Positions 9,537 through 15,652 are shown, counted from the first letter of the stretch. The stretch: 60,402 nt of DNA from Fidelibacterota bacterium (GCA_013203145.1 JABMOV010000166.1:1-60402), one strand, 5' to 3'. Numbers and translations: made by a program. Notes: generated by a model from the sequence alone, not told the origin.

Positions 9537-10349
9537 CTAAAAGTTGGGTCCTTTAAAATCTCTTTTCACAATTTCTGTTGTAATAAAATCGAAAGCGATA
9601 TCTATGGAATCCGTTATTTTGAATAGTTTTAGATCTTCAGCGCTTATAGTTCGCGCTTTGACCAAATAATCCCAGTTTACAACATTGTTCCAAAAATCTT
9701 CGCCAAAGAGAATAATAGGTATTCGTTTTGAAATCTTTTTTGTCTGGATCAGCGTTAATATTTCCATGAGCTCATCTAATGTACCAAATCCACCGGGGAA
9801 TGCCACCAGAGCCTTTGCCAAATACGCCATCCAAAATTTCCGCATAAAAAAGTAATGAAATTGAATATCCAGATCATTTGTTATGTAAGGATTGCTTGAT
9901 GGTTCGAAGGGCAGGGTAATATTCATTCCTATAGATAATCCTTTAGCTTCGCTAGCGCCACGATTTGCAGCCTGCATGATTCCAGGACCACCACCGCTGG
10001 TTATGATATAGCGATGTTCTGAGTTTTTTAATTTTTTACTCCAGCGTGTTAATCGATCTGCTAATTGTCTTGCTGCATCGTAATATCGGCTGTTTTCTAA
10101 ATCTAACTCCAGAGTTTCTTTTTCATCATGTGAAATATCAGCTGGTGCTGAATCAATATTTGCTTGAGATTCCTCTGGCGATAAAATTCGAGCTGAGCCA
10201 AAGAAAACAATTGTATCACTAATTTTATTTTTTGCTAATCGAAGTTTAGGACCCAGATACTCCGATTGAATCCTCAGGGATCTTGCTTCTGTATCAGTAA
10301 GGAAGTCTTCATCCAAAAAAAATTCTTTTGATTTTGCTTTATCACTCAT
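9537..10349 (-). CDS. LOG family nucleotide monophosphate nucleosidase (Rossmann fold)
   Basis: FFGSAR, SGGGPGIM, HYFFMRK, PGGFGTLDE. Confidence 0.9.
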   Translation of the reverse strand: MSDKAKSKEFFLDEDFLTDTEARSLRIQSEYLGPKLRLAKNKISDTIVFFGSARILSPEESQANIDSAPADISHDEKETLELDLENSRYYDAARQLADRLTRWSKKLKNSEHRYIITSGGGPGIMQAANRGASEAKGLSIGMNITLPFEPSSNPYITNDLDIQFHYFFMRKFWMAYLAKALVAFPGGFGTLDELMEILTLIQTKKISKRIPIILFGEDFWNNVVNWDYLVKARTISAEDLKLFKITDSIDIAFDFITTEIVKRDFKGPNF

Positions 10350-10542
10350 TAAACGTTCTCCGCGTAAAAATCCAAGTTACACTTTTTATAGCCGAGAGGA
10401 AATAGAATAAGTAAGTGGATAAGGAGAATATTGGGAGATTGGGGAATTGCTATTCTCTTGAGCTTTTGAGCAGGGGAATGGTGGAGTAGTACGTGATTGA
10501 GTTTCACTAATCGATGGTCAGTTTTCGACATTCATACTTCAA

Positions 10543-13500
10543 TTATCCTTGTTCAACAATTCTAATTTCTTCATCTGTTAAACCATAGAGATCATAAACC
10601 ATTTTGTCTATTTCTTTGTCGGTTTGGTCAATTTGTTTTTTGAGTTCTTGGGCTTTGCCTTTTTGCGCGTTGAAGTATTGCATCCATTCGGATTGTTCTG
10701 CTAAGGGCAAGGGACTGAAGTCCCTTGTTGTGGTTTTTGCTACAATTTTTCTGGCTTTTCCCAGTTCCTTTAAAAATTCACCAAATTCCAATTCATGCCA
10801 GTTTTGGAGCTTTTTGCTGAGTTTCTCTAGGTCGAATTTGGATTGGAGGAGATTTGAAAATTGTGCAACCATTTTTGAATAATTTTCTATGTATAAAGCA
10901 ATATTGAAAGAATATAATCCAATATTTGATTGTACCTTCTTTCTTACCAATGGAATCTTGAGTTGCTTAATATCCGTCAGTAATATCTGAGGAAAAGCTT
11001 GTTCATTTGTAATCATTTTCTGTCTGACAATGTATGTTAGAAATTTTGAGTTTAACAATGCCAATAAATAGTCCAACCTAACTCTATCATCTTTATTAGA
11101 ACATGAGTACAATGTGCTTTTGGTCAGAGCAGGTTTAGGAAGCATTACACAACACAAAAAATCTCCAGTTCTTCGAATTAAAATTCGAGGGGCAATAGAA
11201 TGTTTTTCAATTTTTTTTGTTCCCCCTACAATAGTCAATTCGCTATAGTCACAATAGTATTTATCCTTAATGAAATATTTATCTATGCAATTCCCAAGTA
11301 GGAATATATTTGGATTGTATACTTTCTCTTTCTGAATAAAATTGCTACGATTCTTAACTACCATACCTTTAAATAAATTACATAAATCTGTCAATATTGG
11401 AAAATCTAGTGTCTCATATTTTAAAGTGATAGAATTACTATTGTTTAGCTGTTCTCGGATTACTTTGTTTTTATTCATATATAGCTCTTCAAATTGAATT
11501 GATGAGCATTTATTTTTTATAAATTCAAAAATCATACTTCCAGTTGTAGCATCTTCAAAAACCCATTCTTCAAAATAAAGAGCTTTATTTATTTTACCGT
11601 GTAAAAGCAACTCATCAACACAATCTGAATAACTTCTAGTTTTTAGAAATCCTTCAGGAACAATGAATGATACAATACCGTCTGATTTTATTAAGTTGCA
11701 TGATTTTTCATTAAACAACGTGTATAAATTTTTTGAGTATGCTTTTTTAATACTTTTATATTTATTTATATAGAAATCAAGCCAAATTATGTTAGTATTA
11801 TTTTTGGTCATATTCAAATACGGTGGATTTCCAATCACCACATCAAAACCGCCTTTGTATTCCGAACGGAAAGCATATTCATAATCGCAACACATACCAT
11901 CTATTTCTGCGACAAGGGAGTTAACTCCCTTGTCGTCGATTACGGGCGGCAACTTGTGCTTGTCCCGGTTGGTCTGGATATAGCCTACAGCATTTCTTAA
12001 TTGTTCTTCGCAACCAATCTCTTTGCAACCAAATTTCTGTGTCCATAGGTGAACATTTTTATCTTTTTCTGCTATAAGAGGTGTTTGGGCAAGGGGCTTA
12101 AGCCCCTTGTCGCCGGAAAACTCTTTATCTTGATCTTTGATTTTATGATACGCTCGGGAAGTCTTTCCTTTTATTTTTTGCATTATTTTCGGGACTTCGT
12201 CTATTTCACACACCAGCAGTAGATGTATATGGTCCCCACAAATATTGTACGCTAAAACATTCAACTTGTCTTCTTTGACAATTCCTGAGATAACTTTTGT
12301 TATCAGCAATTCATCTTCTGCATTTAACCAAATAGGTTCGGCATCTGGTCTTAACCCGTCATCACGTTTTTCACGCACTTTATAATCAACCATCCTCTGG
12401 GATGTACGAGAATCATGCGTAGCGGTCGTTACATGAAAAGCCGTTTTGCTTTTTTCAAGGAATATCCCTGGGAACTCTTTTTTCCAGTTAAATGCTTTTT
12501 CTCCCGCAACTTCAGGATCATCTATCAAAGAGTTCCCACATTTGATGTTATTGCTCAAGGATGTAAGTTTTCTGCCACGTTGTGCAGTTCGCAACCAAAG
12601 GGAAAGTTTAGCAATATCTACACTTTCTTCATTTATATCAACACCATAAATGTTTTGTTCAAGGATATGATTACTTACATCCTGGAATACAATACTAATT
12701 CCCAATAGTTGGGCATGGAGTTCATCAATGTAGGAATGTTCCTTGATGAGAAATTCTAAAGCCTGGTTGAGGAAAGCACCGCTACCGCAAGCAGGATCGC
12801 AAATTGTAATATTGAGTAACCACTTTCTATACTCATTTAATGTAGTATCTAATTTTTTAATAGTATTCTTTTTTCGGTTTTTTCTCCCTTTTGTATACTC
12901 TTCATCTATTATTCCGAATTCAGTTTTCTTTTCGTCACAAAGTTTGCCTATTGTATTATCTACAATATATTTAGTGATGTATTTTGGTGTATAAAAAATG
13001 CCGTCTTTTTTACGTTTGGTTTTACTCTTTTCAATCTCCTGACCTTCTAATCGGGCTGTTATATTTTCAATTTCATTTAATGAATTTTCGAAAATGTGCC
13101 CCAGAATGTTAACATCTACTTCGCTTTGAAAATCATAAGAAGTCATTTTTAATACATGTGGTTTTAGTACATTATCATCAACAAGAGTCTTTACAACAAG
13201 GGTTCCCGTTCTAACAAGGGACTTAAGTCCCTTGTTAAGTCCCTCGTTGTGAAAGTCAGCATCCAATACTTCATCCGGAAGAAACAAACCACCATTATAG
13301 GCAAATATATCATCTTGGCGTGTTTTCCCTATTCTTCCAATATTGATATAATCGAAGTACTGTTTAAAAATTTCGTATAAGGGTTTATAGGCATCTTCTT
13401 CTTGCAGTAAATCAAAACGTTTTACCATTCGGCTAATGGAGTTTGGTGGCAATAATCCACTATCCTCTGCAAAGAAGATGAAAAGAAATCTATCGAGCAA

Positions 13501-14190
13501 TTTTTGTGTTTTCTTAAATAATAAAAGTTTATCGTGATCGGGACTATTTTTTACAATGTTTTGCCAAAGTTCTGTTTTAAACGTTGAGTAATCCTTATAA
13601 AGTTGTTTGGTAATATTGTCCTCTACCAGTATACTTTCTTTTTTTACTTTTTGCGGTATCCCTCCAAGTAGATTGTCCACCTGTAAGCATAACCAGAGTA
13701 TTTCAAATTCATCTTTGGTAAGGATAAATAAATTGAATTCGATGTGCTCTACGGCATTATGAATGAAAAAACGAAGTTTTTCAAAATTGGAGGTTATAAC
13801 ATAGGTGCAATCTGTATGATTATTTTTATAATCAAATGCCTGCTTATTGATTTTATCTAAATCTTTGGTATCAGTCCCTTTTAATTCAATGACAGCGAGA
13901 GCTTTATCATTCTGTAAAATTGCGCCATCAGCTTTTTTTGCGCCAGTTTCGTTTGTATATTCTGTTGTCAGATTAAAATTGGGATTTGGATTTAGTGTAT
14001 ATCCCAAAATATTTACAAACAATTCACGTAAAAACCCCTCTTGAAACTGTTCCTCTTTTGCATCCTTGATATTTTGTTGAATTTCAGGATTATGGAAATA
14101 CTGAGTAAACGTATTATAGGCATCTTCTACAACTTTTTTATTCTGATTATTGAGGTATTTATTGAGTACTGATTTTTGAAATAGGGGCAT
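10543..14190 (-). CDS. Type IIG (Eco57I-like) restriction-modification enzyme with an in-frame HUH/Y1 transposase-like domain
   Basis: N-terminal ADG...IELK nuclease motif; GIFYTPKYI, CDPACGSGAF, YGVDIN, GNPPY adenine MTase motifs; C-terminal TRD; inserted domain before GGFDVVIGNPPY. Confidence 0.9.
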   Translation of the reverse strand: MPLFQKSVLNKYLNNQNKKVVEDAYNTFTQYFHNPEIQQNIKDAKEEQFQEGFLRELFVNILGYTLNPNPNFNLTTEYTNETGAKKADGAILQNDKALAVIELKGTDTKDLDKINKQAFDYKNNHTDCTYVITSNFEKLRFFIHNAVEHIEFNLFILTKDEFEILWLCLQVDNLLGGIPQKVKKESILVEDNITKQLYKDYSTFKTELWQNIVKNSPDHDKLLLFKKTQKLLDRFLFIFFAEDSGLLPPNSISRMVKRFDLLQEEDAYKPLYEIFKQYFDYINIGRIGKTRQDDIFAYNGGLFLPDEVLDADFHNEGLNKGLKSLVRTGTLVVKTLVDDNVLKPHVLKMTSYDFQSEVDVNILGHIFENSLNEIENITARLEGQEIEKSKTKRKKDGIFYTPKYITKYIVDNTIGKLCDEKKTEFGIIDEEYTKGRKNRKKNTIKKLDTTLNEYRKWLLNITICDPACGSGAFLNQALEFLIKEHSYIDELHAQLLGISIVFQDVSNHILEQNIYGVDINEESVDIAKLSLWLRTAQRGRKLTSLSNNIKCGNSLIDDPEVAGEKAFNWKKEFPGIFLEKSKTAFHVTTATHDSRTSQRMVDYKVREKRDDGLRPDAEPIWLNAEDELLITKVISGIVKEDKLNVLAYNICGDHIHLLLVCEIDEVPKIMQKIKGKTSRAYHKIKDQDKEFSGDKGLKPLAQTPLIAEKDKNVHLWTQKFGCKEIGCEEQLRNAVGYIQTNRDKHKLPPVIDDKGVNSLVAEIDGMCCDYEYAFRSEYKGGFDVVIGNPPYLNMTKNNTNIIWLDFYINKYKSIKKAYSKNLYTLFNEKSCNLIKSDGIVSFIVPEGFLKTRSYSDCVDELLLHGKINKALYFEEWVFEDATTGSMIFEFIKNKCSSIQFEELYMNKNKVIREQLNNSNSITLKYETLDFPILTDLCNLFKGMVVKNRSNFIQKEKVYNPNIFLLGNCIDKYFIKDKYYCDYSELTIVGGTKKIEKHSIAPRILIRRTGDFLCCVMLPKPALTKSTLYSCSNKDDRVRLDYLLALLNSKFLTYIVRQKMITNEQAFPQILLTDIKQLKIPLVRKKVQSNIGLYSFNIALYIENYSKMVAQFSNLLQSKFDLEKLSKKLQNWHELEFGEFLKELGKARKIVAKTTTRDFSPLPLAEQSEWMQYFNAQKGKAQELKKQIDQTDKEIDKMVYDLYGLTDEEIRIVEQG
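10708..10727. repeat. REP-like palindrome, copy 1
   Basis: CAAGGGACT-GA-AGTCCCTTG, perfect 9-bp arms, inside the RM CDS. Confidence 0.85.
11910..11935. repeat. REP-like palindrome, copy 2
   Basis: CGACAAGGGAGTTAACTCCCTTGTCG, perfect 26-bp palindrome inside the HUH insert. Confidence 0.9.
12090..12109. repeat. REP-like palindrome, copy 3
   Basis: CAAGGGGCTTAAGCCCCTTG, perfect 20-bp palindrome inside the HUH insert. Confidence 0.9.
13212..13249. repeat. REP-like palindrome, copy 4, plus an overlapping half copy
   Basis: TAACAAGGGACTTAAGTCCCTTGTTA (13212-13237), perfect 26 bp, followed by the half-site TTAAGTCCCTCGTTG (13235-13249). Confidence 0.9.
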
Positions 14191-14401
14191 AAGGGATTTT
14201 AATTATTTTCGCTTTTATACATTGACATATAGTGTCTCAATAAACCGAATAATTGGGTTTACCATGGATATTAACCGATATATCACACAATATCCTCATT
14301 ATTAATATTTTAACTAGTCACCTAATCCATCTTATTAAAGACTCTGACAATCTATCTCTAATATTTGTCAATGTTCAATGAAGAAATATTTTACCTACTG
14401 T

Positions 14402-14431
14402 AAACAAAAAACCCCGCCGAAGCGGGGTTTT
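14402..14431 (-). terminator. Rho-independent terminator
   Basis: Minus strand AAAACCCCGC-TTCG-GCGGGGTTTTTTGTTT just after the stop at 14454. Confidence 0.9.
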
Positions 14432-14453
14432 ATAGAAGTCGGGATTACACCAT

Positions 14454-15485
14454 TTATTTAATATATGATAACTTCCCGTTAACGAACTCATTTCCTTGTT
14501 GAATCGTATAGATATAAAGACCGGTACTTACTTTTTGTCCCTGGATATTTGTAGCATCCCATTGCACTTGGTTAGTACCTACACCAACTTTCTTTTTAAC
14601 GAGTTGGTTAACCAATTTTCCATTTAAATCATAAATGGTAACGCTAACTGGTGTCGATTCCATTATTTCGAATGTTATAAGCGTAGTTGGATTAAATGGA
14701 TTGGGAAAACTATGATGTTGAATACGATATTTTTCAGCAAAACCATCCTTAATACCCAAAGCGTCTGAATTTCCAGTATCTTCAAGTAAAGTCAGGGATA
14801 CAACACCAATTCTACTTAATGATAAATCACATTCCATTAGGAAACCTGTGACTTCAACATAGTTACCACTTTCAGGAAGGAATGCTGTAGAATCTTGATG
14901 AATCCAATGCCGTAATTTTAATCCATAGTCAGCTTCACCGTCATTTTCCACATCTAATAAAACCCGAGGATGAGGACGATCAGGGATTTCTTCAAGAATA
15001 ATATATCCTGTGACCGTTGTTTGTTCACCTTCGGGATTTTCACCGTACCCAACGAAATTACCCTCATCATCTAATGGGAGCCATTGCTCACCATTTAATG
15101 TAAATACGACCAGAAATTGTCGATTTGGTGTTTCGACCAATCCACCAACCATATCAATAACATCTCCGGCGGCTGGCCTGGTTGCACCACTTTCAGGTGT
15201 ATACCATTCTGGACCAAAACGTAAATCATAGTCAGATAACCCATCGCTATCACTATCCAGATGATACCGAGTGACAACTGTGCAGTGGGTTGAATCTTCT
15301 GTCAAAATAACTGTTCCAGAGACAGTTAATGTATCGGAAAAGCCGGGAAATTGACCGTGATCTCCGTGATGACCGGAACCTCCATGGTGACCACCGCCTG
15401 GTCCCCCAGGTCCACCAGGGCCTCCTTGTGCAATAATAAATGTTCCGTAGATTAAGGAAATAAATAACAGGGATTTGATTTTCAT
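14454..15485 (-). CDS. Secreted protein: Gly/Pro/His-rich leader, two tandem repeats, FlgD/T9SS-type C-terminal domain
   Basis: GGAGGA RBS before ATG 15485; signal peptide; FPNPFNPTT...IYDLNGKLV...WDA...STGLYIY tag. Confidence 0.8.
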   Translation of the reverse strand: MKIKSLLFISLIYGTFIIAQGGPGGPGGPGGGHHGGSGHHGDHGQFPGFSDTLTVSGTVILTEDSTHCTVVTRYHLDSDSDGLSDYDLRFGPEWYTPESGATRPAAGDVIDMVGGLVETPNRQFLVVFTLNGEQWLPLDDEGNFVGYGENPEGEQTTVTGYIILEEIPDRPHPRVLLDVENDGEADYGLKLRHWIHQDSTAFLPESGNYVEVTGFLMECDLSLSRIGVVSLTLLEDTGNSDALGIKDGFAEKYRIQHHSFPNPFNPTTLITFEIMESTPVSVTIYDLNGKLVNQLVKKKVGVGTNQVQWDATNIQGQKVSTGLYIYTIQQGNEFVNGKLSYIK

Positions 15486-15652
15486 TAGTCCTCCATTGCT
15501 AAAATGTGAATTGTCTTTATCATGTGTATTCTCAATTTGAATTTTTATGTTTCTCCACATTAGACGCATTTCACAGCAAAAAGTTAAATAATAATCAAAA
15601 ATAATATCCTATGTAGTTTTACGTTATTGAAAGGTTTACTATTTTTCACTGT

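Follow-up and report, generated by a model that had tools for sequence, protein, structure and literature searches.

Two groups of described enzymes lie closest to the system reported here. The Y1 HUH enzymes comprise the transposases of the IS200/IS605 family, such as TnpA of IS608 and ISDra2, and the repetitive extragenic palindrome (REP)-associated tyrosine transposases (RAYTs), such as TnpA_REP of E. coli. What RAYTs do, and how they relate to REPs, has long been an open question. The hairpins of IS608, ISDra2 and TnpA_REP are imperfect, which gives them strand and end identity. The second group, the Type IIG restriction-modification (RM) enzymes of the MmeI/Eco57I kind, consists of a nuclease, a helical spacer, a gamma-class N6-adenine methylase and a TaqI_C-type target-recognition domain (TRD), in that order, and exchanges its TRDs in modular fashion. 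In a 60,402-nucleotide (nt) stretch of Fidelibacterota DNA (JABMOV010000166.1, hereafter the window; source genome G000, 2.85 Mb), the gene at 10543-14190 combines the two: it encodes a Type IIG enzyme with a RAYT/IS200-like Y1 HUH domain embedded in frame, and the gene contains perfect palindromes that also accompany this domain in most of its relatives. Other loci, genomes and sequencing runs are numbered with the prefixes L, G and X. In the searchable part of the full-text literature, outside which lie subscription journals, REBASE and supplements, we found neither a RAYT or Y1 domain within an RM enzyme nor cognate hairpins inside a gene described, and a look-up of terms in PMC5581495 gave the same result.

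The gene is a single open reading frame (ORF) of 1215 amino acids (aa), with nuclease and methyltransferase in one polypeptide recognized by family profiles. The PADLOC profile REase_MTase_IIG (PDLC03609, E 1.5e-277) covers residues 1-578 and breaks off there; over the whole ORF, Pfam identifies Eco57I (119 bits), MmeI_Mtase (44.9 bits), TaqI_C and Y1_Tnp. The order of parts and the modular TRD are those of MmeI/Eco57I enzymes; unlike them, the protein carries a 199-aa foreign domain between methylase motifs I and IV, in the loop directly before the beta-strand ending in NPPY. The last enzyme residue before the insert, at the end of EFPGIFLEK, is 580, and the enzyme resumes with GGFDVVIGNPPY at residue 780. 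These boundaries are exact, since insert-free homologs read across the same junction. In a paralog from the same genome (insert-free, partial, on contig C84) EFPKIFQK is followed directly by GGFDVVIGNPPY, and in G022, an insert-free homolog from the same order that is 66% identical over residues 1-577, EYGEIFNN is followed by GGFDVV. Further insert-free homologs are found in G066, G136 and G095. The initial annotation had the flanking motifs right and the extent nearly so: it placed the insert at 11857-12450, about 198 codons, where we find 11854-12450 and 199 codons. The paralog is a second Type IIG gene of the family (L069, C84:39020-40732), cut by the contig end with 574 aa visible; it is 76% identical over residues 468-577 and contains neither the RAYT insert nor palindromes.

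Several lines of evidence assign the insert to the Y1 superfamily. It matches Pfam Y1_Tnp (PF01797) with 42.4 bits (cutoff 23, E 8.8e-11), as had been anticipated; its best NCBIfam match is the RAYT profile REP_Tyr_transpos (NF047646, profile positions 26-136 of 146), where the score of 41.6 bits stays below the family cutoff of 80. A sequence-profile search of the PDB retrieves ISDra2, IS608 and TnpA_REP. The AlphaFold model of the insert has a mean predicted local distance difference test score (pLDDT) of 84.1 and a predicted template-modelling score of 0.79. With this model Foldseek yields 26 matches at E <= 0.001; among the matches listed, all are IS200/IS605-type Y1 transposases, including ISDra2, IS608, the S. 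tokodaii transposase and IS200, with template-modelling scores (by target) of 0.50-0.67. E. coli TnpA_REP (4er8) ranks 30th (E 3.9e-3). The insert contains the metal-binding HUH motif and a single tyrosine on the C-terminal helix, aligned by profile to the corresponding helix of 4er8. Y737, N741, R742, K744 and H745 of this helix are invariant in 27 full-length homologs, as is an H-D-S-R-T-S stretch near the N-terminus of the insert; the tyrosine is likewise invariant in all 35 insert sequences. LWTQKF lies at residue 715. By profile and predicted fold, the insert is, as the initial annotation held, an intact RAYT/IS200-like Y1 HUH domain within an otherwise complete Type IIG enzyme, and it belongs to a distinct RAYT-like clade.

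The fusion is neither an assembly chimera nor a singleton with a decaying insert, two of the three outcomes that by the initial annotation would have refuted it; the third, lack of a profile or fold match, is answered by the matches above. In run X3, from another study, a 32-kb contig spans 11818-14190 unbroken at about 93% identity, and the listed homologs share the architecture. Among 581 candidates, at least 302 proteins, 668-2127 aa long, reach E <= 1e-3 against the insert; all 120 of the matches listed have PF01797 together with Eco57I, at 42-85% identity. When 1.84 billion representatives were searched with a profile, 1145 matched at E <= 1e-3 and 136 at E <= 1e-30. Relatives are encoded at 62 genome loci, mostly of Bacteroidota, including named Flavobacterium and Pedobacter isolates, and also of Chlorobiota (Chlorobaculum), Ignavibacteria, Spirochaetes and one gammaproteobacterial metagenome-assembled genome. 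Isolates with a fusion include Flavobacterium restrictum LB1R34, F. psychrotolerans RB1R5, Pedobacter changchengzhani E01020 and Chlorobaculum thiosulfatiphilum DSM 249. The ratio of nonsynonymous to synonymous substitution rates (dN/dS) is 0.05-0.24 in the RAYT core (8 pairs with dN and dS both estimable and core dS >= 0.09) and 0.025-0.15 in the N-terminal part of the enzyme (11 pairs with a value), which indicates purifying selection on the insert; one pair, L055/L057, has too few changes for inference.

Three host architectures bear the insert: MmeI-like Type IIG, HSDR_N-type Type IIG and an SNF2 helicase-methylase. The last is represented by a 1853-aa ORF (L091:269-5827) in which SNF2 and Helicase_C precede an Eco57I methylase with the insert at the same site. 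Among the fusions in which the junction pattern matched (n=11), including divergent lineages, the junction lies exactly before GGFD in all 11. A 599-aa protein, P0266, matches the insert profile at residues 369-575 and has no Pfam methylase domain; it could be a fragment or represent a further host context.

The window contains four palindromes of 20-26 nt (CAAGGG-N8-CCCTTG), hp1 to hp4, where none is expected; two of them, which read GACAAGGGGCTTAAGCCCCTTG and GACAAGGGAGTTAACTCCCTTGTC on the coding strand, lie in the insert. All four lie within the fusion ORF. AAGGG-N8-CCCTT occurs at six sites in the 2.85-Mb genome, and only the four in the fusion ORF have the complete CAAGGG/CCCTTG stem. 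As single-stranded DNA (ssDNA) they are predicted to form hairpins of 8-11 base pairs with computed folding energies of -7.7 to -12.5 kcal/mol, and their stems differ from one another by paired changes (AC/GT, AG/CT, GC/GC). The stretch encoded by hp2 (insert residues 112-130) has a pLDDT below 50 and is predicted to be disordered. Around hp1 the protein has an in-frame insertion, which none of the 50 other genes covering this part of a 55-gene alignment has, and matches to relatives split the query at residues 310/337; the X3 relative shares it minus 12 nt at 13223. Rfam returned no match to the fusion gene at gathering score.

The same association holds across relatives, and it is exclusive. 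In the 57 loci with a qualifying ORF (5 of the 62 have none), 82 palindromes lie inside fusion ORFs (191.5 kb) versus 9 outside (368 kb), several of the latter in the broken remainder of the same fusion gene. At least one palindrome is present in 47 of the 57 genes, and 8 of the 9 examined among those remaining have variant perfect palindromes, such as CAATGGAGCATGCTCCATTG. Of the 10 sites in five other whole genomes, 9 fall in the fusion locus; the reversed pattern, searched as a control, gives none. Five of five insert-free homologs examined have no palindrome. The single extragenic copy in these genomes (L082, G002:C1:361704) lies between two convergent genes, next to two copies of another hairpin, GTCCCGACGCTTCGGGAC.

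The cognate palindrome of the clade is perfect, 20-30 nt long, with the conserved stem (A)ACAAGGG...CCCTTGT(T), and forms an ssDNA hairpin of 8-11 base pairs; its stem changes through compensating pairs. Relative to the coding strand its flanks are asymmetric, with A at -2 in 95 of 111 and C at +21 in 89 of 111. The 125 intragenic palindromes of 55 genes concentrate at hot spot A (54) and hot spot B (32), with 18 in the C-terminal region and 6 in the nuclease loop. The same palindrome DNA is read in two frames, as TRxHxPL and as NKGxxPLV, which accounts for the odd variable peptides in the protein alignment. Hairpins can persist in coding sequence because two of the three frames are open and because they occupy loop positions.

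The profile search also yields proteins of about 160-200 aa that have their own start codon and the clade signature HITWVTHNSRxSERM, DHxH, LWAQKY and YxxNNRxKH; some of them contain hairpin-coded peptides. The 135 RAYT segments from genome and metagenome loci (144 sources minus 9 with no RAYT match of at least 140 aa) were sorted by tblastn: 100 are fused and 32 stand-alone, and 3 are unclear. All 32 stand-alone genes, two of which (L105, L109) were read by hand, have a palindrome inside or within 300 nt, and at their loci 67 hairpins occur in 36 kb near the gene versus 17 in 114 kb farther off. A typical unit has one hairpin 20-100 nt upstream of the start codon and another 10-90 nt past the stop. 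At four loci the stand-alone gene adjoins an insert-free Type IIG gene (PADLOC PDLC03604, E 7.7e-258). Three of these were mapped and form hairpin-bracketed cassettes (HP, hairpin; RM, Type IIG gene): HP,HP-RM-HP,HP-RAYT-HP at L153, HP-RM-HP-RAYT-HP at L134 and HP-RAYT-RM-HP at L141. At L079 the fused gene is itself flanked, HP-fusion-HP,HP. A stand-alone RAYT-like gene at L167:136-4746 sits amid 11 hairpins of two alternating stem types (CAAGGGG..., CAAGCGG...) around neighbouring genes, a stretch that looks like a small REP array.

Phylogeny indicates that the domain has changed state or partner several times. Fused and stand-alone forms are intermixed in the insert tree, on which their distribution requires 10 changes, at least 2 of them forced by starred branches; that the fused forms make up one clade is rejected by an approximately unbiased (AU) test (p 0.0015, difference in log-likelihood 191). 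The insert phylogeny is also incongruent with that of the enzyme backbone. On a backbone tree of the 70 fusions with a full N-terminal match, the two major insert clades need 10 changes, 8 of them forced by starred branches; the window's backbone is 80% identical (kept tree columns) to that of L135, whose insert belongs to the other clade and is about 43% identical by tblastn. Several close pairs have a far lower dS in the insert than in the N-terminal part (0.09 vs 0.63, 0.058 vs 0.546, 0.013 vs 0.70).

Changes among relatives are also seen at the hairpins. A 48-nt hairpin-unit indel separates L039 from L048, a 12-nt indel at hp1 separates the window from its X3 relative, and around hot spot A some 240 nt have been remodelled between L015 and L024, whose sequences on either side are 90-100% identical. 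TRDs turn over as well: their identity is 17-25% between close relatives whose N-terminal parts are 89-99% identical. The X3 relative, from a seawater metagenome, is 99.6% identical over 10300-10860, and a different 1147-nt TRD segment replaces 10860-11818.

Compared with RAYTs, the domain has the same Y1 HUH fold with one catalytic tyrosine and is present in a single copy in its source genome (2.85 Mb searched; next match E 1.26). The stand-alone genes of the clade are flanked by cognate palindromes whose type follows the lineage, much as RAYT genes are by REPs; in the window all hairpins are instead inside the ORF. Unlike RAYTs, the clade has an N-terminus with a conserved H-x-S-R-x-S-x-R-M motif, its hairpins are few and perfect instead of numbering hundreds of extragenic copies dispersed through the genome, and the Y1 protein is here an in-frame domain of another enzyme. 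The IS200/IS605 transposases are the best structural matches, and the stand-alone members resemble them as small hairpin-gene-hairpin units; the cassettes place a second gene between hairpins, as IS605 does with tnpB. The differences are that both ends of a unit are the same perfect palindrome rather than distinct imperfect ends, that the source genome holds one copy rather than several, that the cargo is a Type IIG gene, and that the fused 'transposase' lacks its own start or stop codon. Rickettsia palindromic elements and inteins offer a looser parallel, as selfish DNA that survives in coding sequence, in frame, at tolerated places. The former are longer and encode no enzyme of their own, and the latter excise themselves from the protein, whereas here there is no sign of splicing and the insert stays as a folded domain.

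Taken together, we judge it somewhat probable that a REP/RAYT-like or IS200-like hairpin module resides in frame inside Type IIG enzymes, at one site of the methylase, and is kept active by selection. A unit of hairpins and domain would have been captured in frame at one exact site of an Eco57I-family methylase. When the gene becomes single-stranded during replication or transcription, the HUH/Tyr site would bind the hairpins and cut and rejoin at their feet, and this would lead to gain, loss and local remodelling of hairpins. Over evolutionary time the module, and possibly the restriction gene with it, would be moved or exchanged, while the host enzyme would continue to restrict and methylate. 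In this scheme the cause of the indels at hairpins and the route of capture are presumptive. Of the two readings offered in the initial annotation, a chimeric defence protein or a transposase tolerated in frame, the second fits better, except that the domain does not look passive: it has its own cognate hairpins in the gene, which the initial annotation had missed, has stand-alone hairpin-flanked relatives, and appears to have changed state or partner repeatedly. A bolder version, which we hold tentatively and with more doubt than belief, is a new kind of selfish element: a Y1 module, enzyme and hairpin ends translated within the host protein, that repeatedly entered one Eco57I-methylase site (in three architectures) and either powers the transfer of Type IIG genes or hitch-hikes on their addictiveness. 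If true, it would be a DNA-level counterpart of an intein that needs no splicing.

A resident active module would be a transposase living in frame in another enzyme, its DNA ends read as protein loops, and may explain how some Type IIG genes move between genomes. For the RAYT question, enzyme and a few cognate hairpins here lie within about 3.6 kb, a compact and testable pair. A HUH domain presumed to recognise hairpins and joined by nature to a DNA-recognising enzyme is also of interest for HUH-tag and ssDNA tools.

A number of observations weigh against the reading of an active resident module. Binding and cleavage of hairpins by the domain would follow by likeness to IS608, ISDra2 and TnpA_REP, and the clade's perfect hairpins differ from the imperfect ones of these three systems. 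The insert stays below the RAYT family cutoff, as given above, and below that of NCBIfam transpos_IS200 (32.5 bits vs 55). The trees, built by 'quick' searches from 163 and 552 columns, have some long branches, the AU test was run after the tree had been seen with groups defined by architecture, and some 'stand-alone' rows may be remnants of broken fusions. Hairpins as breakpoints of TRD swaps were considered and rejected: between L039 and L048 the drop in identity comes at the conserved NPPY, some 250 nt away from the hairpins. Three pairs with close backbones lose identity at the insert start and do not regain it through the TRD, as in a single 3' block, so that exact replacement of the module is inseparable from exchange of such a block. 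Ordinary homologous recombination in conserved methylase sequence can account for the swaps and could explain much of the incongruence. In the source genome all hairpins are internal and none flanks the fusion gene, and no hairpins or direct repeats were seen at the edges of the genomic island in which the gene lies. The single copy and the lack of hairpins flanking the gene or the island give no sign of current movement in this genome.

It is also conceivable, though we think it unlikely, that the domain has been domesticated to serve the restriction enzyme and that the intragenic hairpins are relics of its capture. It might nick ssDNA or hairpin-forming invader DNA (ssDNA phages, conjugating plasmids), provide a second-strand cut, or pair two enzyme molecules. 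Purifying selection as strong as on the rest of the enzyme, invariant catalytic residues and a fusion kept across several phyla would fit, as would the single copy per genome, a feature that PMC5581495 describes in its abstract for domesticated RAYTs. Relics, however, should decay, yet the palindromes are perfect, their arms co-vary, and their number and place vary among close relatives while they are often alike within a gene. Moreover, close insert-free homologs, including the paralog in the same genome, look complete, and discordance between domain and backbone phylogenies is unexpected for an integrated part.

Autoregulation, in which the domain would bind its gene's hairpins, either in RNA or in ssDNA of the transcription bubble, and so tune a potentially toxic enzyme like the controller proteins of RM systems, seems to us quite improbable. 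It would account for the confinement of hairpins to the gene or cassette that encodes the domain and for the hairpin that often lies 21-100 nt upstream of the start codon of stand-alone units; binding alone, however, needs no conserved full HUH and Tyr chemistry, hairpin positions vary inside fused genes, and we know of no Y1 enzyme that regulates itself through hairpins in its own gene. Least credible, and disfavoured, is a neutral passenger, an old inactive insertion decaying in a surface loop next to unrelated palindromes. The predicted disorder of the hairpin-coded loop and the one copy devoid of flanking hairpins in the source genome are what such a passenger would show. Against it stand the low dN/dS, the catalytic residues that remain invariant at 42-85% identity, and palindromes that go with the domain whether it is fused, stand-alone or in a cassette, and that the five insert-free homologs examined lack.

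The remaining parts of the host enzyme, collected in the table, appear intact: nuclease, SAM (S-adenosylmethionine)-binding, NPPY and target-recognition parts are all present, and the enzyme probably retains RM activity. DPACGSGAF (D465-F473) and GNPPY (G787-Y791) are invariant in 27 full-length homologs. In the nuclease region D88, E102 and K104, which we take to be a PD-(D/E)xK-type motif, are invariant in 27 of 27 aligned homologs; the Pfam scores of this region (MmeI_N 18.4, HSDR_N 18.6) are both under cutoff.

Table. Features of the fusion gene, ordered along its coding strand (positions in the window; aa, residues of the ORF; a dot marks features given no strand)
Feature	Position	Strand	Remarks
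Type IIG ORF	10543..14190	-	1215 aa, no stop or frameshift; Y1 HUH domain embedded
N-terminal nuclease region, aa 36-163	13702..14085	-	D88...E102-x-K104
MmeI-type helical spacer, aa 227-303	13282..13512	-	PF20465, 26.1 bits, slightly under cutoff 27
Lineage-specific in-frame insertion, ~aa 311-336	13183..13260	-	hp1 and partial arm copies
hp1	13213..13236	.	AACAAGGGACTTAAGTCCCTTGTT, read NKGLKSLV; fold -10.2 kcal/mol, z -5.3
Methyltransferase, N-terminal part, aa 446-580	12451..12855	-	Pfam MmeI_Mtase and N6_Mtase; SAM motif I DPACGSG at aa 465
In-frame Y1 HUH (RAYT/IS200-like) domain, aa 581-779	11854..12450	-	199 codons
HUH motif DHIH, aa 653-656	12223..12234	-	D653, H654, H656 invariant in 27/27 and 35/35
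hp2	12088..12111	.	Hot spot A, between HUH helix and LWTQKF; read DKGLKPLA
Candidate catalytic Tyr737	11980..11982	-	C-terminal helix YIQTNRDKH; GYIQTN aa 736-741
hp3	11911..11934	.	Hot spot B, directly past Tyr helix; read DKGVNSLV; -12.5 kcal/mol, z -6.3
Methyltransferase, C-terminal part	11560..11853	-	Pfam Eco57I aa 745-877; motif IV NPPY aa 788-791, 11818-11829
TaqI_C-type TRD	10960..11301	-	PF12950, 50.3 bits, cutoff 26.5; hypervariable, swapped among close relatives
hp4	10706..10729	.	C-terminal region; other frame, read TRDFSPLP; -7.7 kcal/mol, z -3.9
Conserved helical C-terminal region, aa 1115-1215	10546..10848	-	From homolog alignment

The palindromes leave traces in assemblies and databases. 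In run X1 the Logan unitigs stop precisely at hp3 (11906-11935) and hp1 (13212-13241), where they overlap; we attribute this to the way perfect palindromes behave as k-mers and see no biological cause in it. De Bruijn graphs break at perfect palindromes of such length, so members of the family may often be fragmented in assemblies. Database searches for the family turn up many short 'transposase' or 'partial' matches, and annotation pipelines name the fusion proteins 'transposase' or 'methylase' at random. No hairpin-to-hairpin joints were found in Logan contigs, which drop rare variants and are uninformative either way. Among the sequencing runs listed for the locus, none is of RNA.

The gene lies within an island of about 5.2 kb (window ~10388-15634) that is missing from G007, a genome of the same genus in which the flanks are about 100 nt apart. 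GC content falls to 0.26-0.30 in the recognition-domain part. The island also carries an ORF at 14454-15569, the C-terminus of which resembles a type IX secretion sorting signal. At 14408-14436, between two minus-strand genes, lies a GC-rich hairpin with a T run behind it, aaaaccccgccgaagcggggtttt, which gives sub-threshold Rfam matches only and is probably a terminator.

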